Shown here: piece by piece, positions 9,480 through 52,952 of the stretch
How the letters are laid out: each line of letters starts with the position of its first letter
How positions within the stretch are numbered: position 1 is the stretch's first letter
NCBI GenBank assembly: GCA_964503335.1
Contig: CAZCZZ010000003.1
Coordinates: forward strand, 41,384 to 105,383
Source: an uncultured Verrucomicrobiota bacterium
Lineage (GTDB): Bacteria; Verrucomicrobiota; Kiritimatiellia; CAIVKH01
Direction: 5' to 3'
DNA: 64,000 nucleotides
Made by a program: the position numbers and the translations under genes
Notes under the pieces: model-generated
The model's input: only the letters and a program-made list of their open reading frames with translations
Databases searched by the model: none
Told to the model about the DNA's origin: nothing

Positions 9480-9489
9480 GGTCTTCTCC

Positions 9490-10716: not shown

Positions 10717-10728
10717 GGGAAGGATCTT

Positions 10729-11586: not shown

Positions 11587-11640
11587 GATCGAAGCAATCC
11601 TCCCCGCCACGGATTGTGTGCCGTGAAAGCACTTCGTCTA

Positions 11641-33235: not shown

Positions 33236-35728
33236 CTAGACTGCCCGCCGGCGCTGGCCTGCGATCCCGACGAGGGCGAAGAGGCAGGCTGTAAGGCCTG
33301 CGGCTTGCGGAATCAGGGACACCCGGCTCGGCGCGTAGTGGAGAATGACTTCGTGGAGACCGGCGTCCACGTAGACCCCTTGGAAGAGATAATCGCAGCG
33401 ACGCACGGCCGTTTCCACGCCATCCACCCTTGCTTTCCAATCCGGGCTGAACTTGTCGGCGATGCGCAGCATGGCCGGGCGGTCGGCAGAAACGCCGAGC
33501 ACCACACGGCCCGGCCGATAGGCTTTGACGGTTACCGTGCCCGCAGGTCCCAAGCCGTTCCCGACCGGAAGTCCCTCGCTGGTGGTCGGGGACACAGTGA
33601 CCTTCTCGAAAAGCGGCATGGTAGCGTCGGTGAGTCGTCGCAACGCCTCTGAGTCCTCCGCGACATCCCAACCCGCGATCAACCGGAAGCGGCCCGGCGG
33701 CGCAGCGCTGCGGAGGATGCCGTGCTGGCCTGGCTGACGCTCCGTCGCGGGGATTACGTTCACACCCCCGCCGGGCGTACCGGTGACATTAAACGCGAGG
33801 ACAGGCGTATAGAGTCCCTTGAAGCGCGGGTCCGCACCAACCTGCTGGAGAATCTGGCCGGGGCCGACAAGGTGGCTCACGGCGCAGAGCGGCCACATAC
33901 GTTCGGGCTGATTCTGCATCGCGCCGAGGAACTGCTTATAGTCATCCGGCATGCGCATCTGCGTCACATTGAAAGCCGGCAATTGGTGATACGGGAATAG
34001 ATAGGTCAGCCAGAGATTGTAGAAGCCGCTCTGCTGCAGCAGATAGGGGCGTCCGTGATCACGCTGGGCCGCGAGGGTCTTCACCACCTCGTTCTCGTCG
34101 ATGAACCCCTTCGCCTCCATCGTCTTCACGTAGTGGCGGCTCACCACGAGCAGGTCCAACGCCATCACCACGGCACAGACCCAGGGCGCAAAGGTGCGGA
34201 CGCTACCGCTGCGGCTGCCAAGCGAGAGCATGATCACGATGAAAGCGCCGGCGAACAGCGTCAACACAGCCCCGTGGGTGAGCCCACCCACCATGTTGCT
34301 GACGATGACAGGAGCTGCCTGCCCCCAGCCCTCGCGGTTGAAGCGACCGACCGCCTCGGGCGTCGATGAAGCGAGTCCTGCGGCCCAGAGCGCGAGGAGG
34401 AGTCCGAAGCCGAGCACAGCGTAGGCGTACTTGCGGAGCGCGCGCTTCGTTTCATCAGTCGCCGCGAGGAACAGGGCGTGGACGCCATACGCCGCGAGGA
34501 TCGCCCACGCCATCTGCGCCACCTGCATGAACTTCACGGGATTGCGGATCGAGCTCATGCCGGGCAGATAGTAGAAGAGCCTGTAGAGCGGGAAGAATTT
34601 ACCGAGGGCCAGCAGGTAGGTCACAAGGGCCACGGCTCCCCAGAACAGGATCTCGCGGCGCGGCAATCGGGCGTCACGCTGCGAGGAGAACGCGGCAAAC
34701 AGTGCGAGGAAACCGAGCACCATCGGGATGGCGCCCATGTAGAGCGTCTCCAACTTGAAGTTCTGGAAACCCTGCTTCGTCCTGTCCCACTCCGCCGAAC
34801 GGCCCATGCGGCCCCAATAGGGCCCTTCGGGTTCACCTGATCGCCAGCCCATGTATCCGGGTGCAATGAACTCGATCGACTCCTCCGGCGGCCAACTCCA
34901 CTGCGTACAGTAGTCCCAGTTGGCATCCCCGCCTTCCTCGACAATCCCCGCATCGCTCCGGTCGAGGGCGTAAATGGACTGCGCCATCAGGATGGGCCGG
35001 GCTGCAAGGGCACCCGCAACGAGTCCCATGGGCACAAGTATCCTCAGGTATGTGCCGAAATCCTTCCCGTGGTCCCGCCATAGCGCGAAGAGGACATAAG
35101 GCCCGATACCGAGCGCAAAGAACAGCCCCACATCCGCCTGCTCAATGATCATCGAGCCCACGGCAGCGCCGGCGAGAATCGCATAGGCTACACTCCTGCG
35201 CTGAACAGCCAGCTCGATAAGCGGAAGTGCCAAGCCGGCGAACGCCACCACACCAAACTTCCCCAGATGCCCCGCATAGATAAGGAAGAACGTGCTGCCG
35301 AACCAGCAGAAGGTCATCCCCGCAATGATCGAGGTGGTCGTGGAAAGCCCGCGCATTCGGAGAAAAGAAAACAGACCCAGGCTCGCAATAAAGAGATCTA
35401 TGGCATGAATCCAATTCGAGTAGAACCGAAGAGGCAGGATCCAGAGCAGCACATTCGACCAGGAGATGTTGACGATCTCTGGAGTTCCCACCAGCACGGT
35501 GTCGAACCACCACCCCAGGAACGAAAACGGCAATGCACTTTCACGGTAGGCAAGAGCACCGATATTGTCATCCGTCGTCAGGAGCAGTTGCCCTGGTACA
35601 AGGACCGCGCGAAAGACCAGCAGAGCCAACACGGTGAAGAATACGACAACCTTCAGTGTACTCCGCTGTTCGTCAGGCTCCACGGCCTGTTTCGCAGTCA
35701 AAGAAGAAACGCTTGAAGCTAGCTTCAT
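33236..35728 (-). CDS. Large polytopic membrane protein, YfhO-like / GT-C-fold-like (~830 aa).
   Basis: More than 10 N-terminal TM helices, a large C-terminal soluble domain and a final C-terminal TM helix (LTACLFALVGIAG), which is YfhO-family architecture. ATG at 35728; the ORF track extends to 35836. Confidence 0.45.
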   Translation of the reverse strand: MKLASSVSSLTAKQAVEPDEQRSTLKVVVFFTVLALLVFRAVLVPGQLLLTTDDNIGALAYRESALPFSFLGWWFDTVLVGTPEIVNISWSNVLLWILPLRFYSNWIHAIDLFIASLGLFSFLRMRGLSTTTSIIAGMTFCWFGSTFFLIYAGHLGKFGVVAFAGLALPLIELAVQRRSVAYAILAGAAVGSMIIEQADVGLFFALGIGPYVLFALWRDHGKDFGTYLRILVPMGLVAGALAARPILMAQSIYALDRSDAGIVEEGGDANWDYCTQWSWPPEESIEFIAPGYMGWRSGEPEGPYWGRMGRSAEWDRTKQGFQNFKLETLYMGAIPMVLGFLALFAAFSSQRDARLPRREILFWGAVALVTYLLALGKFFPLYRLFYYLPGMSSIRNPVKFMQVAQMAWAILAAYGVHALFLAATDETKRALRKYAYAVLGFGLLLALWAAGLASSTPEAVGRFNREGWGQAAPVIVSNMVGGLTHGAVLTLFAGAFIVIMLSLGSRSGSVRTFAPWVCAVVMALDLLVVSRHYVKTMEAKGFIDENEVVKTLAAQRDHGRPYLLQQSGFYNLWLTYLFPYHQLPAFNVTQMRMPDDYKQFLGAMQNQPERMWPLCAVSHLVGPGQILQQVGADPRFKGLYTPVLAFNVTGTPGGGVNVIPATERQPGQHGILRSAAPPGRFRLIAGWDVAEDSEALRRLTDATMPLFEKVTVSPTTSEGLPVGNGLGPAGTVTVKAYRPGRVVLGVSADRPAMLRIADKFSPDWKARVDGVETAVRRCDYLFQGVYVDAGLHEVILHYAPSRVSLIPQAAGLTACLFALVGIAGQRRRAV

Positions 35729-35809
35729 ATGGCTGCGAAGCGTAGAGGCGCGCTCCTCAAGGGGCAAAAACAATTTACACTGAATGTCACAACCAGATAG
35801 GCTCGCAAA

Positions 35810-38128
35810 ATGCGAACCTTCATCAACGCCTTCCATCGTCTTGCCGCGTCTGTGATTGTCGCGACCGCGCTATGCAGTTGCGCGGGCAAACCGTCGACAT
35901 CAGCCCGCCCGTGGAGAGACTTCGTTCGGGAACTTGCTGACAAGGGAAACTTCCCCCGGCTTGATGTACCTGGCACCCAGCTGATTTCCTCCTATGACCG
36001 GAAGGGTGGCAACGACGACTTCAACAACTTCCAGGGACCGGGCTCGGAGCCAGGATGGGTTACGCTGGCTGACCTCAAGGGACCCGGCGTAGTTCGTCGC
36101 TTCTGGACCACGGGCGCGGATCCAGGGCACGAATGCCGGTTCTTTTTCGACGGCGAGAAGAAGCCCCGCATCCAGGGCGCAGTCGATCAAGTCTTCGGGA
36201 ATCAAGAGCCTTTTGTGGAACCTCTCGCCCGCTACATGAATCTCTGCATCTCGAGCTTTGTGCCCCTCACGTACCAGAAATCGCTCCGCATCGAGATGAG
36301 GTCCCCCACCACACACCCGTTCTGGGGACCGCGCCGACTGTTCTTCCAGATCAACTATGAGAGCATGCCGTCCTCGACGGAGCTTGAGACATTTCCTGCA
36401 GTCCGTTCAGCGGAGGATTCACAAGTCGTCGCCGAGGTTTCAGCGGCGTGGCGCGATTCGGTGAAGTGGCCTGAGGCAGCCTTTGACAGACCCCATATGT
36501 CCATCCCTGCGGGGACGTCCGCCGTTGTGCTCGAAGAGGCTGGTCCAGGTGTGTTAACTCGACTGGCACTTCGCGTCCAACCGGCCGATACGAACGTATT
36601 GCAGTCAGACCGGGAAAGCCTGCTGCAATCCGTTCTGCTGAGGGTTCGCTACAATGGGAATAGCTTCGCAAGCATGGAAGTGCCTCTCGGAAGCCTCTTC
36701 TGCAATGCTTGGAGAGAGCGACATTTCGCAGCACTGGCAGTCGGATCGGGCACCAATGGATATGTGCTTTCGATGCCAATGCCTTTCCAGACTTCGGTCC
36801 AGATCGAACTGCAGAACGATTCACCGCTGGACATTGCAGCATCGGTCCAAGGCGTGACAGAAAAGTCATGGGACGACAGGTGGGGGTATCTCCATGCGGA
36901 ATGGAGGCGATCCGGTCCACAGCCGGGCATTCCACACACCTTCTGTGACGTCAAAGGTGACGGGAAGCTGGTGGGAACCTATTTGGGTGTCACGGGGATG
37001 GGACAGGACTGGTGGATTCTTGAAGGAGATGAATCCTGCTACGTAGACGGGAGTGCAACGCCCTTTTGGCGCGGTACGGGCCTGGAGGACTACTTCAACG
37101 CCGGTTGGTATTATAGAGGCGCTGCCTTTGCGGCCATGCATGGGATCTTCGACCGTGCTCCCTTCCGTGTCGGGCAGTATCGATTTCACCTCGTTGACCC
37201 GCTTCGCTTCACCAAATCGCTCCGCATGACCATCGAACGCGGTGACCAGAACGTAAGCCCGGGCTACTTCGAGAGTGTCTCCTACCTGTATCTGCGCGAG
37301 CCCGCGAAGGTCGCCGCAGTGCCAGCCGAACCGGGGGCACGCGCCGCCGTGGAAATGACCTACTTCCGACAGACCTTCATGCTGCAGCTGGTCGAACTCG
37401 AGCGCATGAACAACTTCAGCAAGGCTGCAGACCTCATCAAGGAGTATCTTGAGAGGTTTCCGGATGCGACGGAATGCGGCGTCTACCGTTTACGATGGAT
37501 CGAGTATCAGCGTTTGCTGGGACGGGAATACGCATCATCGGACTACGAGCCGTTCCTTCGTGGTGACCACGGTCCGGAAGCCCAGGAGCAAGCCAAGCTG
37601 TTGGTCTGGTTCCAGGAAAGGCCCGGCAGAGCCCTTGTCGGTCTGAACGCCAATGCCAAGGCGTCGCTTGTTCTAGACGGCAAACAGATACTCGCCGGTG
37701 ACCACCCCTATCAGCTCTTCGTGACCGGCGTCGAGTTGTCAGATGGCCCGCACGTCCTGTCGTGTACCGCAGAGATGGTCAGGCAGGAACCCTGGATTCA
37801 AATCGGCGTGCGTACGCGCGACGGATTTGCCGGCACGGGAATCGGTACATCCTTCTCCCGCGTCGCCTCACCAGGGTGGGATCAGCCTGGTCCAATGAAT
37901 CCAGCGTGGGAAGTAACGCTCCCCATGAACGTGCTGCGCGGAACACCGGATGCACCGATGATCGGTGGTGTGCCGAACGCCTTCATTCTCCTACAGTCCA
38001 AGGCGTATTCCATCCGCTCCATGGACTGGGGATACTATCGCGGCACGGCGTATTTCCGCCTGCCCTTCGAGACGCCCCTGCAAGGCTGGCCATCGTTTTC
38101 TTCCGGCCTTACAGGTCTGCCGCGTTAA
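35810..38128 (+). CDS. DUF2961 (GH172-like) lipoprotein.
   Basis: Lipobox ALCSCAG. Central region WRRSGP...WWILEGDESCYVDGSATPFWRGTGLEDYFNAGWYY resembles the DUF2961 signature. The C-terminal half is unassigned. Confidence 0.45.
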   Translation: MRTFINAFHRLAASVIVATALCSCAGKPSTSARPWRDFVRELADKGNFPRLDVPGTQLISSYDRKGGNDDFNNFQGPGSEPGWVTLADLKGPGVVRRFWTTGADPGHECRFFFDGEKKPRIQGAVDQVFGNQEPFVEPLARYMNLCISSFVPLTYQKSLRIEMRSPTTHPFWGPRRLFFQINYESMPSSTELETFPAVRSAEDSQVVAEVSAAWRDSVKWPEAAFDRPHMSIPAGTSAVVLEEAGPGVLTRLALRVQPADTNVLQSDRESLLQSVLLRVRYNGNSFASMEVPLGSLFCNAWRERHFAALAVGSGTNGYVLSMPMPFQTSVQIELQNDSPLDIAASVQGVTEKSWDDRWGYLHAEWRRSGPQPGIPHTFCDVKGDGKLVGTYLGVTGMGQDWWILEGDESCYVDGSATPFWRGTGLEDYFNAGWYYRGAAFAAMHGIFDRAPFRVGQYRFHLVDPLRFTKSLRMTIERGDQNVSPGYFESVSYLYLREPAKVAAVPAEPGARAAVEMTYFRQTFMLQLVELERMNNFSKAADLIKEYLERFPDATECGVYRLRWIEYQRLLGREYASSDYEPFLRGDHGPEAQEQAKLLVWFQERPGRALVGLNANAKASLVLDGKQILAGDHPYQLFVTGVELSDGPHVLSCTAEMVRQEPWIQIGVRTRDGFAGTGIGTSFSRVASPGWDQPGPMNPAWEVTLPMNVLRGTPDAPMIGGVPNAFILLQSKAYSIRSMDWGYYRGTAYFRLPFETPLQGWPSFSSGLTGLPR

Positions 38129-38985: not shown

Positions 38986-41900
38986 TCAGGGCTTTTTCGT
39001 GGCCCTGATTCGGAGATAGAGCTGTCTCTCTTCGCCGAACCCGTTCGTGTAGCCCATGGTCACCCCTGTGCCGGGGACATTCTGGAACGCCGGGCTGGGT
39101 GTCCACGTCGCAAGATTCGTGGAGGTCTCGGCGGAGTAGACGCTGTCTACGCCGCTCTGCCACGAGATGACCGAGCCCGACAGTTCAGAGTTCAGGGTCC
39201 CCAAGTGACGGGCACCCAAGCCGGGGCCACCGCTTGTCGTGCTCGAGAGCCCCATACTCAGGAAACTGTCCGCGCTGTTCGGATCCGTGCCTGCAAGCTC
39301 TTCGTCCCTGTTCGAGACGCTGTCCCCATCGCTATCCAGAGCACCCTCATCGACAATTTCAGCAGGCGGCGGAAGGTCGCTTGACTCCTCGCTATCAACC
39401 GCGACGCCGCCCACGCGGAGCACCACGGTCTTCGGCCCCAACGTTGTATTGAAGAAGCTTTCGCGATTCGCCTGCGCGACACCGGAGCCGCTCTCGTTGG
39501 TCGAACCAACGACTTCCCAGATAAACGCGACATCGTTCGAAAGAGGGTTTCGCACCTTCCAATAACCGTTCCACATTGCGACGAGGCGAAGGGAATTGCC
39601 CTGTCCGTAGTTGACGACTTGTTTCGCGTAGTTGCCCATGCTGTCGAAGGCCATGATCGTTAGCACGTTGTATGTGCCGCGCACGCCGGTCACGGTGTAG
39701 TGGTATGTGTTTCCGCCACTGTGCGTAGCCGCCTTGCCATTGACCGTGACGCTGACGACAGCGACGTCATCCGTGGCAATGATCGTCATTGGAATCTGAT
39801 TTCCGTTGCTAACATGGCCGTCCGGCGGTGCGATGTGCACGATCACGGGGGGTGTGGCGTCGGAAGCCGTCGGGATGTACGTGCCAGTGACGATGACGTT
39901 TGATCCTGAGCCTAGCAGGACCGCGATATCCGCTGGTTCGCTCCAGGCGGGTATGTCTGCAAATGCGACCGAGTACTCGCCTGTCGGCAAGTAGACCGTC
40001 TTTCCGCTCTCAAGCCAGTCCGTCTCTCCCGCGATGCGCCACTTCGCACCGACCTCGCGCGCTTTTGCGGGCTCGAGGTGACAGGTCACGCTGGCCTTCG
40101 AAATAGGAATGGCATTTGTTTGCAGCTCGAAGCAGCCCATATCGACGAGGCTGTCAACGATCCGCGAGTTCCCGTCAAGATCGGTGTCCGTCGCCATCCA
40201 CTCCTGATTCGTTCCAGCGTTCGCGCACGTGGAACCCGGCTGCAGGTGATAGTCGGCGCCGCCCACGAACGAAGGATCATTCGTCAGATTCCCGTCGAGC
40301 CAATGGACAGGGCCTAGACCGGAAGTCAGAATTCCATTCGTACCACCTTTGACATCCGAGTATGAAACGGTCAGCGCCATGCCAAACCAACTCGTGTTGA
40401 AGGCCACCTCTTCGCTTCCATTGCCCCAGACGATCGAGTTCAGCAACTTCGGGTGACTGCTATAGGAGACGGCAAGACCCGCGCCCTTTGTTGCAGGCGC
40501 GATATTCCCGACGATCGTTACACTCTCAAGCAATGGACTTGAGGCATCGAAGAAGAGGCCGCCACCCTCGCCCGATGTCTCATTCGCCCTGATGAGCGAG
40601 TTCCGGATACTTGCGTCGCTGTGATAAAGAAGCAGTCCGCCTCCGCCGTCGGGGCCGTTATTCTCTTCAACGCGGATGTTGGCGATTTCAGGTGCCCCAT
40701 AAGACACGCGAATTCCTCCGCCATTCGCTGCGAGATTGCCGCGGACAGACACATTGCGCAGGGTCGGCGAGGAATGAGCCATATAGATTCCTCCGCCCTC
40801 CTGATCGGCGCGGTTGCCTGCGATCACGAGATCCTGCAAGCGCGGTTCAGCCGAGAAGCACCCGATACCGCCGCCGTGCCCGCCAGGCGCGGCGCCTTGC
40901 GCATAACCGTTCGTAATCGTAAAGCCAGCAAGCAGGGTATCGGGGCCCTCGCCGCCCGAGAAAGTCACCACACGGCCCAGATCACCGCCGTCGATGATCG
41001 TCTGGGAGACGTGTGACGCGTCCCCGTCAAGAGCAAGACGCGAAGCCAAACTGATCGTCTTGCCCAGGAAGTTGATGCGTTCGGCATAAATCCCATCGTC
41101 GACATATATGCTGTCGCCACTCGAACTGATCGCTATTGCATCCTGGATGTTAAGGGCAGCCGTGGCCCAGTTGGTATAGGGCGGGACTGCTGTTCCCGTC
41201 TTGGCCACATAGCGAACCGTGGGAACGGACGGAGGTTGAACCGTGACCAGGGTTATCGTGTCGGACCAAGCCGACAATGCCGCGGCATTTGTCACGCAAC
41301 GCGCCTGTGCGCTAATCGCAAAGATTCCAGGCTCCGTCCAAGTGTTTGAGCGAATGGCGCTGCCCCAATCCGACAGCGAACCATCGCCCCAGTCGAAACG
41401 GTACTCGACATCACACCCATCACTGCTCGTCGCGCCGCTTGATGCAAAGGCGAGGGTTTGATACACCAGTCCCGTGGCGGGACCGGATGGGACCTGCGGA
41501 GGGGTTATCGTGACCGGATATCCGGCAAACTCGTAGGCCCCCATGTCCACGATTCCATTGAGAATGCGGCTATTCCCGTCGAGGTCGGTGGGCTCCGTCG
41601 CCAGCCCGTTGTTTCCTGCGTTAATGCATGGAGAGCCTCCCGCCAGCCTGTACTGCGAGTCACCAAACAGGGGATCTGTGGAGATGTTGCCGACGCCGGC
41701 AGGAAGAGGTGTCGTATCGCAATACGTATAGTTGCCACCGCTCCAATTCCCTCCGTTGTTGCCGAAGATGATCGAGTTGCGAACCGACGCACCGTTGATC
41801 ACGTAACCCAGTCCCCCATAGACGGGCGCACTGTTTCCCGCGATCGTGCAGTTCTCGATAAACGCTCCCTGACTGCCCCAGTCTACAAATACGCCACCCG

Positions 41901-44900
41901 TATTCTGCGATCCGGTATTGTCGGCAATCAGACAGTTCTGCAGTCGGCCCGAGTGGTAGATATGCACCCCACCTGCGTTCGGCGAGGTGTTCCCCACAAT
42001 CCGACTGTTCCGAACCGCGCTGGCACCTGCATCCGTGAACCGCACACCGCCGCCACCCGCGCTCGCATAGTTGCTCTCAATCGCGGAGTTAAAGGTGTAG
42101 CCGCTGTACAGAATGTAGATGCCACCGCCTTCATAGGCGCTGTTGTTCTTCACTACGCAGTTGCTGATCGATGCGCCACCCGTCAGGTAAACGCCGCCGC
42201 CGTTGCGCTCATAGGGGAACGTACCGCTGAGGAACGTGCCACCGCCTGCGATCGTAAAGCCTTCGAGCCTTGCCCCACCCGCAAGGTAGACGCCGCGCAC
42301 AGCCGATGCGCCCTCGGGCCCCTGCCCCTCGATGACTGTCGAGGCTGGCCCATTGACACTGCGAATAGAAATTGAATTCGTGGCAACGACTCTGTTGGGC
42401 AACCCATAACCGGGCGTCAGCGCCGCACCCACTGAATAGACGCCATCCGTTACCACGACCGCGTCCCCGCTGATGGACACATTGATGGCAGCCTGGATGT
42501 TCGTCGCCGCCGTGGCCCAGTTGGTGTACGGAGGCACAGACGACCCTGTGAGTGACACATAGTGTGTCTGGATCACCGGTGGCGGAGACGTAACCGTTAC
42601 CAAACGATTGTCCGACCACGATGACATCGCGAAGACATTTGTGACGCAGCGGGCCTGAGCGCGCACAGAATAGCTCCCGGAGCTCAACCACGCATGCGAG
42701 TTGGTGGAGGAACCCCACGACGAATAGCCCCCATCACCCCAATCGAATCGGTACTCCACAGCGCTGCCGTCACTGGCTGACGATCCGCCTGACGAGTACT
42801 CTTCAATGGCAAACACGAGACTGGTTGTAGCACCCGATGGAACAGCCGGCGTACTCACCGTGGGACCGCCTCCCCCGACTTCGTATGCACCCATGTCCAC
42901 AACGCCGGATACGATTCTGCTGTTTCCATCGAGATCGGCATCACCGATCACATAGCTGTTCTGACCGGCATTGGCGCACGGCGAAAGCGCCGATATCCGG
43001 TATGCGCCATCGGCAAAGAGCGGGTCACCGGAAATGTTGCCTGCGCCTGACGGGAGCGGTGTCGTGTCGCTGTAGGAAAATGAACCAGCACTCCAATTCC
43101 CGCCGGAGTTCCCATAGATGATCGAATTGCGAACCGTCGGACCATTGACCACGTGGCCAATGCCGCCGTAGACCGGCGCGCTGTTTCCAGCAATAGTGCA
43201 GTTCTCGATAAACGCACCCTGGCTGCCCCAGTCGACGAAAACGCCACCCGTATTCTGTGATCCGACATTGTCGGCAATCAGACAGTTCTGCAGTCGGCCC
43301 GAGTGGTAGATATGCACCCCACCTGCGTTCGGCGAGGTGTTCCCCACAATCCGACTGTTCCGAACCGCGCTGGCACCTGCATCCGTGAACCGCACACCGC
43401 CGCCACCCGCGCTCGCATAGTTGCTCTCAATCGCGGAGTTAAAGGTGTAGCCGCTGTACAGAATGTAGATGCCACCGCCTTCATAGGCGCTGTTGTTCTT
43501 CACTACGCAGTTGCTGATCGATGCGCCACCCGTCAGGTAAACGCCGCCGCCGTTGCGCTCATAGGGGAACGTACCGCTGAGGAACGTGCCACCGCCCGCG
43601 ATCGTAAAGCCTTCGAGCCTTGCCCCACCCGCAAGATAGACACCGCGCACCGCCGACGAGCCTTCGGGCCCCTGCCCCTCAATCACAGTCGACGCCGGGC
43701 CGTTTACGCTTCGAATCACGACACCGTTGGTCGCGCGTACGCGGTTCGGCAGCGTGTAGCCGGGCGTTACGGACATGCCGACATTGTAAACACCATCAGT
43801 AACAATTACGGACTCACCAGGATTTGCTGCATTGACCGCAGCCTGGATATTCGTCGCCGCAGTAACCCAATTTGTGAAGGGATAGGCATGAGCACCCGAC
43901 AGTGATACGTAGCGATCCCCAGATACGGGAGGAAGGCTCGTGATCGACACCGTCAAGGCAGCAGACCAGCTCGAAACCGCGGCTAGATTCGTGATGCACC
44001 GAGCCTGGGCCTTGACTACGTACGACCCCGCTTCGGTCCATGCATGTGAATCTGTGCCGGAACCCCACGTCGAGTAGCTGCCATCGCCCCAGTCAAAGCG
44101 GTATTCCGGAGCACCACCATCCGAGCAGATCGACCCGCCCGTCGCGAACGACAGCACCGACCCCACCAACCCCGTGACAGGTCCCGAGGGCGAATCCGGC
44201 GCACTCACTGTAACACTGCCGCTAGCCGCAAACTCATAGGCCCCGATGTCCACGGTATCATAGAGGATGCGATCGTTACCATCCAGGTCGGCCGTTCCCA
44301 CTGCCAGGCCGTTGGAGCCTGCGTTCACACAGGGAGAGCTCGCACCGATACGGTAGTCTGCGTCGGCAAAAAGTGGATCATTGGTCGAATTTCCCGCTCC
44401 AGTCGGCTCTGGTGTGGTTACACAGTACAAGAAGGAACCTGCGCTCCAGTTTCCGCTCGAGTTGCCAAAGATTATCGAGTTGCGAACCGTCGGACCGTTG
44501 ATCACGTGGCCAATGCCGCCGTTGATCGGCGAGCTGTTTCCCGCAATTGTGCAGTTCTCGATGAATGCACCCTGGCTGCCCCAGTCGATGAAAACGCCAC
44601 CCGTATCCTGTGATCCGACATTGTCGGCAATCAGGCAGTTCTGGAGTCGCCCTGAATGATAGATATGCACACCACCAGCGTTGGGGGAAGTGTTCCTGAT
44701 GATACGACTGTTGCGAACCGCGCTGTTCCCCGCATCCGAGAAGCGAACTCCGCCACCGCCAGCCGTAGCATGGTTGCTCTGGATCAGGCAGTTGTCGGCG
44801 TAACCGCTAGTGAGAATATACAATCCCCCGCCCTCCAGCCCCGTATTGCTCTCCAGAACGCAGTTGCTGATCGATGCGCCACCCGTCAGGTAAACGCCGC

Positions 44901-45939
44901 CGCCGTTGCGATCATGCGGGAAGGTTCCACCCGTCATCGTGGCGCCATCGGAAACTGTGAAGCCTTCCAGCCGCGCTGCACCGGTCAGATACACGCCCCG
45001 AACGCTGCCAAGACCATCGATGGTCGTCACGGCTGGACCGTTCACACTTCGAATCACAACCGCATTGCTGGCCACAACCCGGTTCGACAACGCATAGCCA
45101 GGCGTCAGCTTCGTGCCCGCGCTGTAAACACCATCGGTCACGATCACCGTATCGCCAGCCGCTGCCGCATCAACCGCATCTTGTATCCTCAATGCCGCCA
45201 TCGCCCAGTTCGTGTAGGGAGGAACATTGCCGCCCGTGGGTGATACGTAGCGAGAACTTCCATCCGTATAGCTGGCAAGGGAAAACACCTCATTCGAAGA
45301 CAACGCACGATTGTATACCCGGACATCGTCGAGCCTGATTTTCGTAGGATCTCCCAATGTCCTTGAATTAGATAAAACCATTCTGACTGGCGATATCAAT
45401 GGCCAGCTCATTGTTGCTGTTGATACCGCAACTCCATCCGCGTACGTTTTGGTGCTACTATTCGAGATGACCGCAACTACATGTCGCCAACGTCCGATCA
45501 GATTCGAAACGCTGCTCATGATCTGATTGGAATTCACAGGACTACCGCAGCTGTGAAAATAGATATTCGAGTAAACTTGCGCCATTTGCGGGCCACCGCA
45601 AGTTGTACCAATGGACAACTCCCCAATTGCTGCACCTACGTCATATCGCTCCAAGTACATCCAGAAAGCGAGCGTGTACATTTGGGCGCTATTCACGGGT
45701 AAGTTGCTCACAACAAGCGCGCCACCGTCAAATGCATATGCCGATACCGCATCGCCGAACCTGTTAGACGTAGGAGAGTAGACCCCAGCAAGGACACCAT
45801 TTAAGGCATTTCCGCTGACATCGTTGGCATTGCCATCAAGTGGGTAGCTTGCGACAAGGCCGTCATTCAATTCTCCTCGCGCATTGAACAGCCCTGTTGC
45901 GGCGATACAGAACATGAAAACCGATGTCATCTTCTTCAT
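38986..45939 (-). CDS. Giant secreted multidomain protein (2317 aa). Signal peptide, LamG/ConA-like lectin domain, then 4 tandem modules, then Ig-like and calcium-binding-like C-terminal regions. Each module is a right-handed parallel beta-helix (PbH1) ending in DLDGNxRI...VD(M/I)GAYEF, followed by a PKD-like domain (EYRFDWGDG).
   Basis: GGAGG Shine-Dalgarno 8 nt upstream of the ATG at 45939. LamG hallmark LDDVRVYNRALSSNEVFSL. Repeated NCxIxxN / GGGV beta-helix rungs. Module starts at RYVSPTGGNVPPYTNW, RYVSLSGAHAYPFTNW, HYVSLTGSSVPPYTNW and RYVAKTGTAVPPYTNW. C-terminal DSDGDSVSNRDEELAGTDPNSADS (thrombospondin type 3-like motif). Confidence 0.8.
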   Translation of the reverse strand: MKKMTSVFMFCIAATGLFNARGELNDGLVASYPLDGNANDVSGNALNGVLAGVYSPTSNRFGDAVSAYAFDGGALVVSNLPVNSAQMYTLAFWMYLERYDVGAAIGELSIGTTCGGPQMAQVYSNIYFHSCGSPVNSNQIMSSVSNLIGRWRHVVAVISNSSTKTYADGVAVSTATMSWPLISPVRMVLSNSRTLGDPTKIRLDDVRVYNRALSSNEVFSLASYTDGSSRYVSPTGGNVPPYTNWAMAALRIQDAVDAAAAGDTVIVTDGVYSAGTKLTPGYALSNRVVASNAVVIRSVNGPAVTTIDGLGSVRGVYLTGAARLEGFTVSDGATMTGGTFPHDRNGGGVYLTGGASISNCVLESNTGLEGGGLYILTSGYADNCLIQSNHATAGGGGVRFSDAGNSAVRNSRIIRNTSPNAGGVHIYHSGRLQNCLIADNVGSQDTGGVFIDWGSQGAFIENCTIAGNSSPINGGIGHVINGPTVRNSIIFGNSSGNWSAGSFLYCVTTPEPTGAGNSTNDPLFADADYRIGASSPCVNAGSNGLAVGTADLDGNDRILYDTVDIGAYEFAASGSVTVSAPDSPSGPVTGLVGSVLSFATGGSICSDGGAPEYRFDWGDGSYSTWGSGTDSHAWTEAGSYVVKAQARCITNLAAVSSWSAALTVSITSLPPVSGDRYVSLSGAHAYPFTNWVTAATNIQAAVNAANPGESVIVTDGVYNVGMSVTPGYTLPNRVRATNGVVIRSVNGPASTVIEGQGPEGSSAVRGVYLAGGARLEGFTIAGGGTFLSGTFPYERNGGGVYLTGGASISNCVVKNNSAYEGGGIYILYSGYTFNSAIESNYASAGGGGVRFTDAGASAVRNSRIVGNTSPNAGGVHIYHSGRLQNCLIADNVGSQNTGGVFVDWGSQGAFIENCTIAGNSAPVYGGIGHVVNGPTVRNSIIYGNSGGNWSAGSFSYSDTTPLPSGAGNISGDPLFADGAYRISALSPCANAGQNSYVIGDADLDGNSRIVSGVVDMGAYEVGGGGPTVSTPAVPSGATTSLVFAIEEYSSGGSSASDGSAVEYRFDWGDGGYSSWGSSTNSHAWLSSGSYSVRAQARCVTNVFAMSSWSDNRLVTVTSPPPVIQTHYVSLTGSSVPPYTNWATAATNIQAAINVSISGDAVVVTDGVYSVGAALTPGYGLPNRVVATNSISIRSVNGPASTVIEGQGPEGASAVRGVYLAGGARLEGFTIAGGGTFLSGTFPYERNGGGVYLTGGASISNCVVKNNSAYEGGGIYILYSGYTFNSAIESNYASAGGGGVRFTDAGASAVRNSRIVGNTSPNAGGVHIYHSGRLQNCLIADNTGSQNTGGVFVDWGSQGAFIENCTIAGNSAPVYGGLGYVINGASVRNSIIFGNNGGNWSGGNYTYCDTTPLPAGVGNISTDPLFGDSQYRLAGGSPCINAGNNGLATEPTDLDGNSRILNGIVDMGAYEFAGYPVTITPPQVPSGPATGLVYQTLAFASSGATSSDGCDVEYRFDWGDGSLSDWGSAIRSNTWTEPGIFAISAQARCVTNAAALSAWSDTITLVTVQPPSVPTVRYVAKTGTAVPPYTNWATAALNIQDAIAISSSGDSIYVDDGIYAERINFLGKTISLASRLALDGDASHVSQTIIDGGDLGRVVTFSGGEGPDTLLAGFTITNGYAQGAAPGGHGGGIGCFSAEPRLQDLVIAGNRADQEGGGIYMAHSSPTLRNVSVRGNLAANGGGIRVSYGAPEIANIRVEENNGPDGGGGLLLYHSDASIRNSLIRANETSGEGGGLFFDASSPLLESVTIVGNIAPATKGAGLAVSYSSHPKLLNSIVWGNGSEEVAFNTSWFGMALTVSYSDVKGGTNGILTSGLGPVHWLDGNLTNDPSFVGGADYHLQPGSTCANAGTNQEWMATDTDLDGNSRIVDSLVDMGCFELQTNAIPISKASVTCHLEPAKAREVGAKWRIAGETDWLESGKTVYLPTGEYSVAFADIPAWSEPADIAVLLGSGSNVIVTGTYIPTASDATPPVIVHIAPPDGHVSNGNQIPMTIIATDDVAVVSVTVNGKAATHSGGNTYHYTVTGVRGTYNVLTIMAFDSMGNYAKQVVNYGQGNSLRLVAMWNGYWKVRNPLSNDVAFIWEVVGSTNESGSGVAQANRESFFNTTLGPKTVVLRVGGVAVDSEESSDLPPPAEIVDEGALDSDGDSVSNRDEELAGTDPNSADSFLSMGLSSTTSGGPGLGARHLGTLNSELSGSVISWQSGVDSVYSAETSTNLATWTPSPAFQNVPGTGVTMGYTNGFGEERQLYLRIRATKKP
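41921..42293. repeat. Internal direct repeat copy B (~373 bp). About 99.7% identical to 43271..43643 (period 1350 bp = 450 aa), within the giant adhesin gene.
   Basis: Identical 68-aa antisense ORFs at 41928..42134 and 43278..43484. Direct base-by-base comparison shows one mismatch in ~373 bp, with flanks ~80-85% identical. Confidence 0.85.
43271..43643. repeat. Internal direct repeat copy A, partner of 41921..42293. A third, more diverged copy lies around 44620.
   Basis: Same comparison as for copy B. Confidence 0.85.
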
Positions 45940-46232
45940 TTGGCTACCTCCAACTTGCCTTTCGGCCCGACCACATCATCAACCGGCTTGCCAGATTACA
46001 CACGCAAGGTATCAAAGGGAACAACGACCACGCCCACACTCATTACTCAAGCGCACAAAGCAGGCTACCACCATCACCGAGTGTCTCATTTCATAGATAA
46101 GTCTACATCCCGTAGATGCTTCGGGACACTCCTTTTTTGTAAGTATTGATCCCCTACCGGACTATAGGGGATCGCACTACGCTAAGCACAGCAGACCGGC
46201 CAGAAACATCGCGTGCGAGTCCCGTGGACAAG

Positions 46233-47189
46233 TTAAATCAGAGGGTGACTTTGCCCTTGGAATCCTACCGATTCCCACACGACATACAGGGGGCGCTTCT
46301 TCGATTCTTCGTAGATCCGGCTGACGTACTGGCCTAGTAATCCGAGTGAGACGAGTTGGATGCCGCCGAGGAAGAGCATGAAGGCCATAATGGAGGTCCA
46401 GCCTGGCACAGACTCGCCCCAGCCGAACATCTTACCGAGCACGACCCGAAGCGCAAAAAGCATGCCGGCGGCGCTTATGAGCAATCCAATGCCCATCATC
46501 CAGCGCAGCGGCGCGCCGGAGAATGATGTCAGCGCGTCCCAGGAGAGCCGGATGAGTTGCCACATCGGATATTTCGTGCGGCCTGAATGACGTGCAGCCC
46601 GATCATAGAGCACGGGGCACTGGCTGAACCCTGTCCAGCACGTGAGCCCGCGCAGGAACCGGTGAAGCTCCCTTATGCCGCGCAGGGCATCGACCACCTT
46701 GCGATCGATCAGGCGGAACTCCCCTGCGTTCATCGGAACCTTGACCCCGGCAAGATGATGGAACAGTCGATAGAACGCAGCGGCCGACGCCTTTTTCAGC
46801 CACGTCTCCCCTGCCCGGCTCCTGCGGACAGCGTAGACGATCTCGTAACCTTCCCGCCATTTCGCGAGTAGTTCGGCGATGACTTCGGGCGGATCCTGCA
46901 GGTCGGAGTCGATGATCACGGCAGCGTCGCCGGATGCATGATCGAGCCCGGCGGTGATACCCATCTGATGTCCGAAGTCGCGTGACAGCCGGATCAATTT
47001 TACGCGCGGGTCTTCCTTGGCCTTGCTCTTGACCCATGGCACGGATCCGTCCGAGCTGCCGTCATCCACAAAAATCAGTTCGAAGTCCTCGGGCTGGGCC
47101 TCCATGACCTTTACGATCCGCTCATACATAAGCGGAAGGTTCTGCTCCTCGTCCAGGAACGGCGATACGATCGTAAGAAGCTTGGCCAT
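46233..47189 (-). CDS. Family 2 glycosyltransferase, polyprenol-phosphate sugar synthase type (Dpm1/ArnC/GtrB-like).
   Basis: LTIVSPFLDEEQNL N-terminus, FVDDGSSDGS and DSDLQDPPE motifs. Two C-terminal TM helices as in ArnC/GtrB. Confidence 0.75.
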   Translation of the reverse strand: MAKLLTIVSPFLDEEQNLPLMYERIVKVMEAQPEDFELIFVDDGSSDGSVPWVKSKAKEDPRVKLIRLSRDFGHQMGITAGLDHASGDAAVIIDSDLQDPPEVIAELLAKWREGYEIVYAVRRSRAGETWLKKASAAAFYRLFHHLAGVKVPMNAGEFRLIDRKVVDALRGIRELHRFLRGLTCWTGFSQCPVLYDRAARHSGRTKYPMWQLIRLSWDALTSFSGAPLRWMMGIGLLISAAGMLFALRVVLGKMFGWGESVPGWTSIMAFMLFLGGIQLVSLGLLGQYVSRIYEESKKRPLYVVWESVGFQGQSHPLI

Positions 47190-47309
47190 AGAGTCCTATA
47201 CCACGTCGGCCGCGACGCTACCAAGCGTGCCGCGAGACGCCAAGCGTGGAGTCACGACGGCTTCCGGCGCTCTTGACCGGACGCGTGAGGCTGGCCATTC
47301 TCTGCCGCC

Positions 47310-48347
47310 ATGTCGAACAGCGTACCTAACGCAAATCCAAGCGTGTCTGTTGTCATTCCCGCCTACGGTTGCGCGCGAACCATCGCAGCAGTCCTGGATG
47401 CCGTGCTCGCACAGACGGTTCAGCCGTTGCAGGTTATCGTGGTCAACGACAGGTCCCCCGACAGCCTTGACGAGGCTGTGAAGCCCTATCTGGACCGGAT
47501 CGAATATGTGACCAATCCGCGCAACTTCGGGCTCGCGAAGACCTGCAACGAGGGCCTGCGCCGGACGAAGGCACCCGTCGTGATGACGCTCCACTCGGAC
47601 TGCATCCTCGATTCGGACTACATCGAGAAACTGCTCAGGCATCTCGACTCCGACCCGAATCTCGGCGCGGCCACCGGACAGTACCTCTTTGAGAACTACG
47701 AATCGCTGGCCCTGAGCGACCGCCTGTTTGCATCCCTCAACCTTCTGCCCGTGGAGACCGACCGGAGCGATTGCTCCGTTCATTATCTGTCCTTCATCGA
47801 AGGGAAGGCCGATGTATTCCGGCGGGAGGCGATCGAGCAATTTGGATTCTTCTCCGAAAACCTTACCCTCACGGCGGAGGATCAGGATCTGTCGGCCAAG
47901 ATGCGACAGAAGGGCTACAAGATCCTCCAGGACGCCAGTTGCAGGTTCCGCGTCATGTTTACGGGAACCAGCGATTCCCTTTGGAAGGTTCTCCGAAAGC
48001 AGAGAACCTATGCCCGCGGGCAAACGTATGTCGTAATCCGTTACGGCCTGGGCATCCTGGGCGACACGACACCGAACCGGAAGTTTCGCGCACGTCACCG
48101 CTTCGGGCAGTTGCTCTTCGCGGCGGTGCTTCCACTCACCATGATCGCTCCCCCTCTCAACCCGTTCTTGTGGTGGCTTCCGCTCGCATGGATCGGACTG
48201 CGGATGATCACGTACGGATTCCTGGCGCACAGGTTCGCGCGATCCGATGTCTTGCTGACGGCTCTATTGGGTCCTGTTGCCGATGTGCTCTATTTCGCTG
48301 GCGCCATTGAAGGCACCGTCAAGACGCTGCTATTCAAGAAGACCTGA
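47310..48347 (+). CDS. Family 2 glycosyltransferase with C-terminal TM helices.
   Basis: VSVVIPAYGCARTI N-terminus, VVNDRSPD DxD-like region. C-terminal hydrophobic segments. Confidence 0.65.
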   Translation: MSNSVPNANPSVSVVIPAYGCARTIAAVLDAVLAQTVQPLQVIVVNDRSPDSLDEAVKPYLDRIEYVTNPRNFGLAKTCNEGLRRTKAPVVMTLHSDCILDSDYIEKLLRHLDSDPNLGAATGQYLFENYESLALSDRLFASLNLLPVETDRSDCSVHYLSFIEGKADVFRREAIEQFGFFSENLTLTAEDQDLSAKMRQKGYKILQDASCRFRVMFTGTSDSLWKVLRKQRTYARGQTYVVIRYGLGILGDTTPNRKFRARHRFGQLLFAAVLPLTMIAPPLNPFLWWLPLAWIGLRMITYGFLAHRFARSDVLLTALLGPVADVLYFAGAIEGTVKTLLFKKT

Positions 48348-48352
48348 AGCGG

Positions 48353-49345
48353 TCAGCCGCCCCAGGACGGCGGCAGCTTCTTTCGGATTTCGATGTTCTT
48401 GAATTCTACTGGTGTCGTCGACCCTACACGCTTCGCCCATTCCGCCATGCGTCCGATGCCTGTTCGCAGATCAACCGGTTGCTGCGCCCCGAAGACCTGC
48501 TTCACCCGCTCGTGGCTGGCGAAGGCATGGACGACTTCGTTGCGCGCGGGAAGATGCGTAATATTCGGCGTCACGCCAAACGCGCGGGCCACTTCCTGCG
48601 CCAGCTCCAGGACGCTGTGCGCCTTGTCCGCACCAACGTTGAAGACATTTTGATAAGACGCTTCGACCAGCGGCGCCCGGGCGATCACCGGCGCGACATC
48701 GTCGACGTGGCTGAAGGCGCGGGTCTGGGCGCCATCCCCGAATACGGACATGGCTTCGCCCTTCATCACCTGGTTCATGAAGATGCCAATCACATTGCGA
48801 TACCGGTCCGCGAGATTCTGTCGCTCGCCATACACGTTGTGCGGACGGAAGATCACGTGGTTCAGGCCGAACATGTGATGTGCCGCCTTGAGATCGAGTT
48901 CGACGGAGTATTTTGCGATTCCGTACGGATCCTCGGGTTGCGGAACAAGCGACTCCGTCATCGGCAACTGGTTTGTGCCGTACACCGCGATGGAACTCGT
49001 GAACACGAAGCATTTCACATCGTGCAGGACGCTCTGATTGATGAGGAGAATCGACCCGAGGACATTGTTCTCGTAGTTGAAGTGCCGGATAAAGTGGCTC
49101 AAGCCTTCCGCGGCATACGCGGCGAGATGGTACACGTAGTCGAAGCGACCGTCGGCCCACAGCGATGCGACGAAGCCTTTGTCGGCCACGGATCCTTGAC
49201 GAAAATCCACGCCGGCTGGCACGTTGCGAGCAAAGCCGCCGGACAGGTCGTCGACACCGACCACTGCGAAGCCCTGCTTCAGGCAGTGCTCCGCCACGTG
49301 CGACCCGATAAAGCCACCGACTCCAGTCACCAATACACGCTTCAT
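48353..49345 (-). CDS. NAD-dependent sugar epimerase/dehydratase (SDR family, GalE-like).
   Basis: VLVTGVGGFIGSHV Rossmann motif and YGIAK catalytic YxxxK. Confidence 0.75.
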   Translation of the reverse strand: MKRVLVTGVGGFIGSHVAEHCLKQGFAVVGVDDLSGGFARNVPAGVDFRQGSVADKGFVASLWADGRFDYVYHLAAYAAEGLSHFIRHFNYENNVLGSILLINQSVLHDVKCFVFTSSIAVYGTNQLPMTESLVPQPEDPYGIAKYSVELDLKAAHHMFGLNHVIFRPHNVYGERQNLADRYRNVIGIFMNQVMKGEAMSVFGDGAQTRAFSHVDDVAPVIARAPLVEASYQNVFNVGADKAHSVLELAQEVARAFGVTPNITHLPARNEVVHAFASHERVKQVFGAQQPVDLRTGIGRMAEWAKRVGSTTPVEFKNIEIRKKLPPSWGG

Positions 49346-49349
49346 GTTG

Positions 49350-51386: not shown

Positions 51387-52267
51387 CAGGTTTTCCGGAG
51401 GATGAGGCTGCGTGTGCCGTCAGGATACAGATGCGACCAGATCATCGCCAATGGTAGAAACGCGAGAAAGAGAGGGTGACGATATCGGCCCGTCCAGCGG
51501 ATGGAGATGCTGGCCGACATCGTATTGGGAAAGGGCACAAACGAAACCTTATCAAGTCTCAGCCCGGCTTTCACCATGAGGGGTGCGAGCTGGCTTTCCG
51601 TCGGGAAGCTGATGTGCCGCGGTGCATCGAAGCCGTGCCACTTTCCGCCGAAAATCCGGAACTCCCTGCTGTCAAGGTTCGGCAGCACAGCGTAGAGCAT
51701 TCCGCCCGGCTTCAGGAGATCGCCGACAAGCCGTAGCGTTCCAGCCAAATCAGTCAAGTGCTCCATGACAAAGTGCATGGTAATCACATCCAGCTTCCCA
51801 TAAAGGTCCGCGCGCAAGTCCTCGAAGCGGTGATAAACAGGAAACCGGACCCTGCCCGCGACAGCTTTCGCAAGTTCCTCGGTGGGTTCATAGCCATAGG
51901 CTCTGCCCACGCGACCCCGCGCGTGGTCGAGGAACCAGCCATCCCCGCACCCGTAGTCGAGAATCGCCATGTCCGGCCGCAGTCGATCGAGATCGAAGTA
52001 GACCGGCCGCAAAACAATCCGCCGGGTGAATTCATGCAACCACGACTTTGAGGCATGCACCGGATATGCCGCGTAGAAGGGACTCACATCCAAAGGCAGC
52101 GGGTGCTGCTGGACCAGACCGCAGCTATCGCATTTCGCATAGCTCGCCAGCAAACCCGTGGCCAGATAGTAGTCCGCTACGGTGGAGAGGAACGAAACGC
52201 CGGCGTTTGAACCGCAGCAGAGACATCGAAACTCGACTCCTGAAGGATTTGAAACTACCGCAGCCAT
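51386..52267 (-). CDS. Class I SAM-dependent methyltransferase with N-terminal CxxC...CxxC zinc-ribbon.
   Basis: FRCLCCGS...CDSCG, then ILDYGCGDGWF SAM motif and LKPGGMLYAV. The ORF track extends to 52366; ATG candidates at 52291 and 52267. Confidence 0.65.
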   Translation of the reverse strand: MAAVVSNPSGVEFRCLCCGSNAGVSFLSTVADYYLATGLLASYAKCDSCGLVQQHPLPLDVSPFYAAYPVHASKSWLHEFTRRIVLRPVYFDLDRLRPDMAILDYGCGDGWFLDHARGRVGRAYGYEPTEELAKAVAGRVRFPVYHRFEDLRADLYGKLDVITMHFVMEHLTDLAGTLRLVGDLLKPGGMLYAVLPNLDSREFRIFGGKWHGFDAPRHISFPTESQLAPLMVKAGLRLDKVSFVPFPNTMSASISIRWTGRYRHPLFLAFLPLAMIWSHLYPDGTRSLILRKT

Positions 52268-52313
52268 TGTTGACAGATCCCCATATCGCATTCTCCTGTA
52301 GCAAGATGCGGTG

Positions 52314-52853: not shown

Positions 52854-52952
52854 TTGGAGTCGTGAGAATAGCGACAAACTGAATTGTCTCAACGTGGATG
52901 TTCATGGCATCGTTTAGCTGCTATTCCACACCAAGACGGGGCAAGCAATTAA

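Follow-up and report, generated by a model that had tools for sequence, protein, structure and literature searches.

A giant, probably surface-displayed multi-beta-helix protein of a deep-branching Kiritimatiellia bacterium and the homogenisation of its modules by gene conversion

Gene organization and modular architecture

The minus strand of the window, that is, the whole stretch of 64,000 nucleotides that was analysed, encodes a protein of 2317 residues in one complete open reading frame (Table 1). This reading frame, its strong Shine-Dalgarno sequence, its signal peptide and its N-terminal LamG domain had all been described in a first-pass annotation, and each of these features is retained here. 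The N-terminus, MKK followed by a hydrophobic stretch of 15 residues, has the appearance of a typical Sec signal, and the LamG assignment is based on a Laminin_G_3 (PF13385) match of 56 bits (cut-off 27.6; E 6.6e-15) that spans aa 75-218. An FtsZ adjoining a dcw cluster has its nearest relatives in Kiritimatiellia, and the window also encodes GH172 and alpha-glucan enzymes near the gene. Rfam and tRNA scans of the entire window were empty, and a scan for promoters and terminators produced no more matches than shuffled sequence did. That genes for a glycosyltransferase, an epimerase and a methyltransferase adjoin this gene is probably a coincidence; a conserved neighbourhood was considered as a clue to function and rejected, because genomic context differs among orthologues and two of them, P0002 and P0004, lie in unrelated surroundings.

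Table 1. Positions of the gene, its encoded domains and its internal repeats in the window.
Feature	Residues (aa)	Position	Strand	Basis or remark
CDS, complete	2317 + stop	38986..45939	minus	P0001 in NCBI is the identical protein, on a 119-kb contig
Shine-Dalgarno GGAGG		45947..45951	minus	7 nt 5' of ATG at 45939; read from sequence
Sec signal peptide, probable	1-~22	45874..45939	minus	Sequence reading; same beginning in orthologues
LamG / concanavalin-A-like lectin domain	~25-225	45265..45867	minus	Pfam Laminin_G_3
Module A: type I beta-helix, choice-of-anchor Q cap, PKD	230-675	43915..45252	minus	Motifs and HMM matches
Module B: type I beta-helix, choice-of-anchor Q cap, PKD	676-1125	42565..43914	minus	Motifs, AF2 model, fold matches
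Module C: type I beta-helix, choice-of-anchor Q cap, PKD	1126-1575	41215..42564	minus	74% aa identity with module B
Module D: divergent type II NosD-like beta-helix, choice-of-anchor Q cap, without PKD	1576-1938	40126..41214	minus	
Conserved cassette: three beta-sandwich domains, TSP3-like Ca loop, disordered linker, terminal beta-sandwich	1939-2317	38989..40125	minus	Alignment A2
TSP3-like calcium-binding motif DSDGDSVSNRDEELAGTDPN	2202-2221	39277..39336	minus	Pfam TSP3_bac, 17 bits
Terminal ~62-aa beta-sandwich ending …YLRIRATKKP		38989..39174	minus	Almost confined to protein C-termini
330-bp exact repeat, copy 1, module B	782-891	43267..43596		To 43635 with one mismatch
330-bp exact repeat, copy 2, module C	1232-1341	41917..42246		To 42285 with one mismatch
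Older conversion tract, module A side	419-488	44476..44685		90% nt identity to module B 43123-43332; 48/63 codons identical
53-nt exact repeat, module A copy		44858..44910		Also B 43505-43557 and C 42155-42207

The LamG domain is followed by four modules, as proposed earlier from their boundary motifs: the start motif [RH]YV..G…P[YF]TNW occurs at aa 230, 676, 1126 and 1576, and the end motif DLDGN.RI…VD[IM]G[AC][YF]E at aa 551, 1002, 1452 and 1920. The beta-helix rungs noted in each module likewise find support in four stretches matching Pfam Beta_helix (PF13229; E 1.2e-37), and a right-handed beta-helix fold is also predicted. The module end previously written as DLDGNxR…GAYEF is the curated choice-of-anchor Q domain (NF041518; 104.4 bits against a curated cut-off of 25), with one matching stretch at the end of every module. 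Domains of the 'choice-of-anchor' type are named for their occurrence in surface proteins whose C-terminal anchoring signals differ; the NF041518 model itself spans just a cap motif of ~58 aa and is silent on function, on the tandem module array and on the C-terminal cassette. In the literature, no description was found of the function of choice-of-anchor Q, of this protein family or of the source samples.

The architecture had been summarized as four repeats of a beta-helix plus a PKD-like domain, of which the four beta-helices stand, while the PKD domain follows modules A to C only and module D is divergent, giving a 3 + 1 arrangement. The motif EYRFDWGDG is present three times (aa 612, 1062 and 1512), the PKD models PF18911/PF00801 reach 47.7 and 35.5 bits, both over the cut-off, and downstream of module D lie beta-sandwich domains of another type without such a PKD. 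Module D shares 35-38% identity with modules A to C, compared with 48-57% with the type II modules of orthologues. It is also the only module matched by TIGR04247 (NosD), at 52 bits against a subfamily cut-off of 300, a score that reflects generic beta-helix similarity and does not place the module in NosD. A structure prediction of one module, suggested in the first-pass annotation, was obtained for module B: its AF2 model (pLDDT 94) comprises a beta-helix over residues 1-~345 and a PKD domain over ~360-445, the latter matching ColG/ColH and other solved PKD domains by Foldseek with a target-normalised TM score (TMt) of 0.64-0.77.

Gene conversion and possible length variation

Modules B and C share a repeat which is exact over 330 bp and extends to 369 bp when one mismatch is allowed, and the period between the two copies is exactly 1350 bp (450 codons), as had been reported. 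The near-identity previously assigned to a 373-bp tract with one mismatch (41921-42293) is real, although that interval contains three mismatches (42247, 42286 and 42292). The flanks, on the other hand, had been put at ~80-85% identity, a level that is not maintained: beyond short shoulders (~88-94% over ~90 bp on one side, ~80% over ~50 bp on the other) the identity of B and C drops to 55-65%. TRF reported no arrays, the period being greater than 500.

Within the tract, B and C use the same codon at 110/110 positions, compared with 55/148 (37%) elsewhere where the amino acid is conserved, and under this background 110 identical codons have a probability of P ~5e-48; synonymous sites have reached saturation outside the tract, and inside it none of them differs. 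This points to gene conversion rather than selection on the protein. An older tract of this kind links modules A and B (Table 1), and the module identity matrix shows grouping by protein and not by position. The locus thus combines a zero-difference tract in old paralogues, a mosaic profile and paralogues that group together, and the earlier proposal of recent gene conversion is upheld: modules A to C are old duplicates being homogenised by intragenic gene conversion. Some relatives have perfect internal repeats of their own; for example, orthologue P0002 contains one of 1097 bp, seen in two independent assemblies.

The identical tract could instead have arisen by one very recent partial-module duplication, given that a single unequal exchange can also yield an identical segment and that the orthologues P0002 and P0003 contain whole-module identical copies resembling recent duplications. 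This explanation is improbable, because both copies sit in full-length, in-register modules whose other ~1000 bp are just 55-65% identical with saturated synonymous sites, local identity between old paralogues being characteristic of conversion, and because the partly decayed A/B tract (90%), together with a different tract end in one short-read contig (L090, in which the tract is ~30 nt longer), argues for repeated events.

The first-pass annotation had predicted that the gene would be a hotspot of assembly trouble. This prediction is confirmed by independent short-read (Logan) contigs of the same organism, as 11/11 of them end within the gene, three at exact repeats (L085, L090 and L092) and two skipping one unit. 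L085 stops 30 nt into the 53-nt repeat common to modules A, B and C, L092 begins 30 nt (k-1) inside tract copy 2 and L090 begins at the tract edge. L088 and L089 join the left part of B to the right part of C via the tract and lack exactly one 1350-bp unit; their diagnostic sites are B-type before the tract (164/164) and C-type after it (220/220). Among the retrieved independent contigs, none covers the passage from the right part of B to the left part of C (43266-42247). The three-module form of L088 and L089 may reflect a genuine allele with a deletion, or the repeat may have collapsed during assembly.

These observations also bear on the view that the near-identical tract is itself an assembly or polishing artefact, with B and C truly diverged there or the fourth module over-expanded. 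In its favour, the full-length protein is recorded from one assembly only, short-read assemblers demonstrably fail at the gene, and bubble-popping could wipe out a few real differences between near-identical copies. Such an artefact is nevertheless most improbable: Logan contigs break exactly at the tract, as a true exact repeat in the reads would cause, L088 and L089 cross it with a clean switch from B to C, identity at third codon positions decays gradually on both flanks, the stretch from the right part of B to the left part of C is unique and codes in frame, which no assembler could invent, and the perfect repeat of the orthologue is even longer and occurs in two assemblies.

With a repeat period of 450 codons, recombination alters the length of the protein in frame, and modules are probably gained and lost through recombination inside the gene. 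Unequal crossing-over in the tract would add or remove whole modules, which may generate length and surface variation in the population. Of the length and phase variation suggested earlier, the former is plausible, relatives having 2-4 beta-helix modules or altogether different passenger domains on the same cassette, while for the latter no on/off mechanism is visible. Moreover, short-read metagenome assemblies break or collapse at this gene, so that the number of modules given for such genes in MAG annotations should not be relied upon.

The C-terminal cassette and its relatives

The C-terminal 379 aa form a cassette whose AF2 model (pLDDT 87) consists of four beta-sandwich domains and a linker, and which matches tandem Ig/FN3 strings by Foldseek. 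The TSP3-like motif first noted from the sequence is indeed present at aa 2202; its 17 bits with bacterial TSP3 (PF18884) lie below the cut-off of 25, a family member (P0134) reaches 29.4 bits, and D264, D266, D268 and N272 of the motif are invariant in alignment A2 of 25 family members. The last ~62 residues constitute a separate domain with the consensus …W.S..g..Y.le.StnL..W…GtG..m.YTn…F[LY]R[IV]…, which is found in 82/120 of the best giant homologues and lies no more than 8 residues from the protein C-terminus in 115 of the 122 detected copies. Across the last 66-378 aa, Pfam and NCBIfam models gave no match at a threshold as loose as E <= 10, and no curated sorting-signal model, including those for the T9SS C-terminal sorting domain, PEP-CTERM and LPXTG, matches the C-terminus.

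Homologues of the cassette were collected by an exhaustive search of representatives, and several short family members (405-979 aa), which are fragments at contig ends, were not scored as zero-module forms. The cassette is common to about two dozen protein clusters, in which it carries passengers as different as 3-5 LamG domains, beta-helix modules or RCC1 plus FN3. A scan of genome contigs gave 79 loci, none of them from the source genome and most matching via the PKD motif EYRFDWGD alone, and a degenerate 44-mer taken from the tract had 0 matches in JGI metagenomes.

The conservation and position of the cassette suggest an anchoring role, in which it would act as a stalk and as the end for envelope attachment or sorting. 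A bolder proposal is that the terminal domain serves as the signal recognised by an as yet undescribed pathway for secretion or cell-surface attachment in Kiritimatiellia and Verrucomicrobiota, comparable in its logic to the T9SS C-terminal domain, and that the cassette is a dedicated stalk and anchor for shuffled passengers; this is speculative and on balance rather unlikely.

It had also been stated that the protein is not a classical autotransporter, and this agrees with the absence of a C-terminal beta-barrel and the modelling of this region as beta-sandwiches. Chlamydial Pmps and other type Va autotransporters resemble it in having a beta-helix passenger with GG[AG][ILV]-type rungs within the PVC superphylum, but they possess a C-terminal beta-barrel translocator; autotransporter models of Pfam and NCBIfam gave no match to the window protein, which therefore does not belong to type Va with its 12-stranded barrel. 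Faint Chlam_PMP matches occur in some homologues, and the window protein has no PF02415 match.

Probable surface display, possible enzymatic activity and biological meaning

Polysaccharide degradation had been considered as one function of this protein, and only the fold speaks for it; no catalytic residue cluster is conserved. In its full form this alternative describes a multi-catalytic, surface-tethered polysaccharide lyase or hydrolase, whose beta-helices are PL9-type or related enzymes and whose LamG and PKD domains serve as carbohydrate-binding or spacer units, in a lineage known for polysaccharide degradation. The nearest solved beta-helix folds are RbtA (PDB 9CDV/9CDU) and the pectate lyase Pel9A (PDB 1RU4), and next to RbtA in structural ranking come carbohydrate-active enzymes (PL9, PL6, GH families and C5-epimerases). 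Faint Pel9A-like or NosD Pfam matches in some homologues, the nearby GH172 and alpha-glucan enzymes, and the polar motifs IYH.GR and D.G…GA.I.NCTI, which are common to the type I modules of the nearest orthologues and could form an active site, also fit an enzyme. However, the window protein has no CAZyme-type Pfam or NCBIfam match at E <= 0.01, including PF22842 of PL9, and no solved beta-helix enzyme was matched at the sequence level, PDB searches with the module profile or a single helix returning PKD matches only. Pel9A and other right-handed beta-helix enzymes share the fold with the window protein and have no sequence-level relationship to it, and its modules show no conserved calcium-binding or catalytic cluster on the rungs. 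In an alignment of 33 modules of the family, rung conservation is limited to Asn, Cys and Gly ladders with no conserved acidic or basic cluster, and conserved charged residues are confined to the N-terminal part (R58 and R90) and the choice-of-anchor Q motif. In addition, the adhesin beta-helices PfbA and Vag8 score in the range of many enzymes, and RbtA, which gave the best structural match, is located at the cell surface and has no known enzymatic activity (PMC12643943). An enzymatic role is consequently regarded as unlikely.

The likeness to RbtA of Acinetobacter baumannii has its own limits, since RbtA consists of a single beta-helix with a GlyGly-CTERM/rhombosortase tail, while the window protein combines four helices with PKD and LamG domains and ends in a cassette of a quite different kind. 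It scores 31 bits with TIGR04212 (rhombotarget A) against an equivalog cut-off of 295, which leaves it outside that family, and its C-terminus follows a beta-strand and lacks a hydrophobic helix, so that there is no GlyGly-CTERM tail.

The protein, whose beta-helices show no conserved catalytic residues, is read here as an adhesin or as a display protein of the cell surface. It is probably a giant, Sec-exported display protein, on the surface or extracellular, of a deep-branching member of the Kiritimatiellia (PVC), built from a conserved cassette and a variable passenger with modules homogenised by conversion. The N-terminal passenger comprises one LamG domain, three type I beta-helix plus PKD modules and one type II beta-helix, and these modules may act as ligand-binding units and not as enzymes; the LamG domain and the fold suggest polysaccharide binding, making glycans the most likely ligands. 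Export across the outer membrane might follow a type II-like or unknown route and not autotransport.

Repeat-bearing surface adhesins that evolve by intragenic recombination include the alpha C/Rib family, Bap/Esp and SasG/Aap, with which the window protein shares tandem in-frame modules and near-identical DNA repeats in an otherwise diverged array. A copy number that differs among relatives and may differ between strains, and probable secretion to the surface, are further points in common. In those adhesins the repeated unit is usually small and Ig-like and belongs to a Gram-positive LPXTG protein, whereas the unit described here is a 450-aa beta-helix plus PKD in a diderm PVC bacterium and is only partly homogenised. 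Repetitive adhesin-like proteins with gene-conversion tracts are well known in other bacteria, and an adhesin-like secreted protein with recombining repeats is typical of bacterial surface proteins and not a new kind of system.

In conclusion, there has been almost no work on the surface proteins of Kiritimatiellia or of other free-living PVC bacteria, and this locus provides a well-resolved example of how such a protein is built, with a constant C-terminal cassette and swappable passengers, and of a likely route by which it diversifies, namely in-frame recombination among modules of 450 codons. The domain restricted to the C-terminus represents a concrete and testable candidate sorting signal.

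Architecture and setting of the giant gene

As the first-pass annotation had proposed, the giant gene is a single open reading frame that carries GGAGG 7 nt upstream of its ATG and encodes an N-terminus that looks like a Sec signal, and a protein identical to its product is on record in NCBI, on a 119-kb contig. Pfam recovered the expected N-terminal LamG domain as Laminin_G_3, together with four Beta_helix stretches and PKD domains, and the DLDGNxR…GAYEF motif described as the module end is present four times and corresponds to the curated choice-of-anchor Q domain of NCBIfam (104 bits, four stretches). Of the four beta-helix and PKD modules that had been claimed, however, a motif scan confirmed four starts and as many ends but found the EYRFDWGDG PKD domain just three times, never in module D. 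Modules A, B and C (type I) show 66-74% pairwise identity, whereas the divergent module D (type II) is 35-38% identical to them. These motif counts and the lack of a PKD domain in D define the protein as LamG, three beta-helix and PKD modules, one beta-helix module and a C-terminal region. Apart from the fourth PKD domain, a mismatch count and phase variation, the earlier description is correct.

Features of the giant gene, its neighbourhood and a relative
Feature	Position	Strand	Remarks
Giant ORF	38986-45939	minus	2317 codons
Laminin_G_3	aa 75-218
Module A	aa 230-675
Module B	aa 676-1125
Module C	aa 1126-1575
Module D	aa 1576-1938		NosD-like type, without PKD
B/C tract, copy in B	43267-43596
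B/C tract, copy in C	41917-42246
A/B tract	aa 419-488 and 870-939
53-nt exact repeat	44858-44910, 43505-43557, 42155-42207		in A, B and C
Cassette	aa 1939-2317
First cassette beta-sandwich	39871-40098 (aa ~1948-2023)	minus
Terminal domain	38989-39174 (aa ~2256-2317)	minus
murG, murC, ddl, ftsQ, ftsA, ftsZ	8256-15072	minus	dcw-type cell-division/peptidoglycan cluster
866-aa ORF	33236-35836	minus	no family match; adjoins GH172 gene; called as 830 aa on independent contig
DUF2961/GH172 protein	35810-38128	plus	772 aa; GH172 in newer Pfam version; downstream of giant gene
Glycan-type cluster	46233-52892		adjoins giant gene
344-aa ORF	47196-48230	minus	no Pfam match
GT2-family glycosyltransferase	47310-48347	plus	345 aa; called on independent contigs
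P0002 internal repeat	L080:11447-12543 and 12863-13959		same in L081

The presence of the dcw-type genes indicates that the window is chromosomal. Its FtsZ shares at most 69% identity with any other among 5.8 billion protein clusters, the closest named matches being from Kiritimatiellia (50-53%), and this lack of a closer relative points to a deep, poorly sampled Kiritimatiellia lineage. The cluster adjoining the giant gene resembles polysaccharide or glycoconjugate biosynthesis, with two GT2 glycosyltransferases, an NAD-dependent epimerase/dehydratase, a methyltransferase and a 678-aa protein that is hydrophobic over an N-terminal stretch and lacks a Pfam match; it is not conserved beside orthologues of the giant gene. 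The 344-aa ORF is probably spurious, and gene calls on independent contigs place a glycosyltransferase on the opposite strand.

Exchange between modules

Modules B and C have in common a 330-bp tract without any difference, its two copies lying exactly 1350 bp apart, and it lengthens to 369 bp when one mismatch is allowed; the period reported earlier was exact, but the interval then described holds three mismatches rather than one. All codons in the tract are identical (110/110), whereas farther out in B and C the codon is the same at just 55 of 148 positions (37%) with a conserved amino acid, so that synonymous sites are saturated there, and under this background the tract has a probability of ~5e-48. 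Judged from these codons, selection at the protein level cannot explain the identity. On both flanks identity decays via third-position differences, and a second tract, already decayed in part, is shared by A and B (90% nucleotide identity, 48/63 codons identical). Such a patch within old paralogues, together with a mosaic profile, is the signature of repeated gene conversion, in agreement with the original proposal; the gene itself is real, and so is the conversion tract, which is highly significant. A 53-nt exact repeat is also found in all three type I modules. Because the period equals 450 codons, any unequal exchange stays in frame; it would alter length but could not turn the gene on or off, and the suggested phase variation is not supported.

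Through exact copies of two flanking proteins, 16 short-read metagenome contigs (ENA, Logan) were found, of which 11 were examined (98.8-100% identity to the window). The giant gene contains an end of each (11/11), and none of the retrieved independent contigs covers B-right to C-left. Breaks fall at exact repeats in three Logan contigs, where L092 begins 30 nt (k-1) into the C copy of the tract, L090 begins at the edge of that copy and L085 ends 30 nt into the 53-nt repeat, which bears out the predicted hotspot of assembly trouble. Two assemblies distinguished by SNPs (L088, L089) both pass from module B through the tract into module C, and since diagnostic sites are B-type before it (164/164) and C-type after it (220/220), exactly one 1350-bp unit is missing. 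In the population of L090 the tract extends ~30 nt farther, as shown by B-type states at the four closest diagnostic sites past it. These ends and switches in independent assemblies imply that the reads of several samples truly contain the repeat. The three-module form represents either an assembly collapse or a genuine allele produced by unequal crossing-over, between which short reads cannot decide.

Relatives, function and the C-terminal cassette

Of the 8000 candidates scored in a whole-protein search, 696 matched at E <= 1e-10; the best are mostly proteins of 1600-3900 aa with one to nine modules detectable by a module A-C profile, and those with names come mostly from Kiritimatiellae. 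The closest relatives (P0002-P0005 and L001; 39-53% identity) carry two to four type I and/or type II modules without LamG, in genomic contexts unrelated to that of the giant gene. Modules are more alike within proteins (70-82% in the giant protein, 100% in P0003 and P0002, 88% in L001) than between them (51-65%), and in the P0002 gene a 1097-bp, 100% identical internal direct repeat at 1416-bp spacing, which was assembled in the same form from two different ENA samples, gives rise to a pair of identical type II modules; homogenisation or duplication within the gene is therefore recurrent in the family.

No sequence-level link of the module to a solved beta-helix was found. In an alignment of 33 modules, conservation on the rungs is limited to ladders of Asn, Cys and Gly, and the charged residues that are conserved belong to the N-terminal part (R58, R90) and the C-terminal choice-of-anchor Q motif; for these reasons binding or display is favoured over catalysis. 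Polar motifs common to the closest type I modules keep alive the reading of the modules as enzymes, though as an unlikely one. Of the polysaccharide-binding or -degrading adhesin first envisaged, binding is the likelier half and degradation, with no conserved charged residues on the rungs, is disfavoured. The protein has no beta-barrel and is hence not autotransported, as anticipated; we infer its outer-membrane route and anchoring mechanism.

An exhaustive search with the cassette found it complete in about two dozen clusters, several short matches being contig-end fragments, and the passengers of complete members vary (3-5 LamG domains, beta-helix modules, or RCC1 and FN3). In its AF2 model (pLDDT 87), three beta-sandwich domains are followed by a TSP3-type loop, whose Asp and Asn residues are invariant, after which a disordered linker leads to the terminal beta-sandwich; Foldseek matched the model to tandem Ig/FN3 stalks only. 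The first beta-sandwich (motif 'G..W….W..SG…l..G.Y.v.F…..W..P') has no Pfam match at E <= 10 and occurs in tandem, in up to 27 copies, in other giant proteins. Of 122 copies of the terminal domain (~62-65 aa, in the giant protein ending …YLRIRATKKP) in the fetched proteins, 115 end no more than 8 residues from the C-terminus. The domain is present in 82 of the 120 best whole-protein-search homologues, also closes P0002-P0005, and as a '…FYRV' type occurs widely in giant PVC proteins; no Pfam or NCBIfam model matches its ~62 aa, and it can be regarded as a candidate signal for sorting or attachment. The conserved cassette and this C-terminal-only domain are useful by-products of the analysis. 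As a repetitive surface protein of the adhesin-like sort that evolves through recombination within its gene, the giant protein itself is of an ordinary kind; its lineage is unusual and poorly studied.
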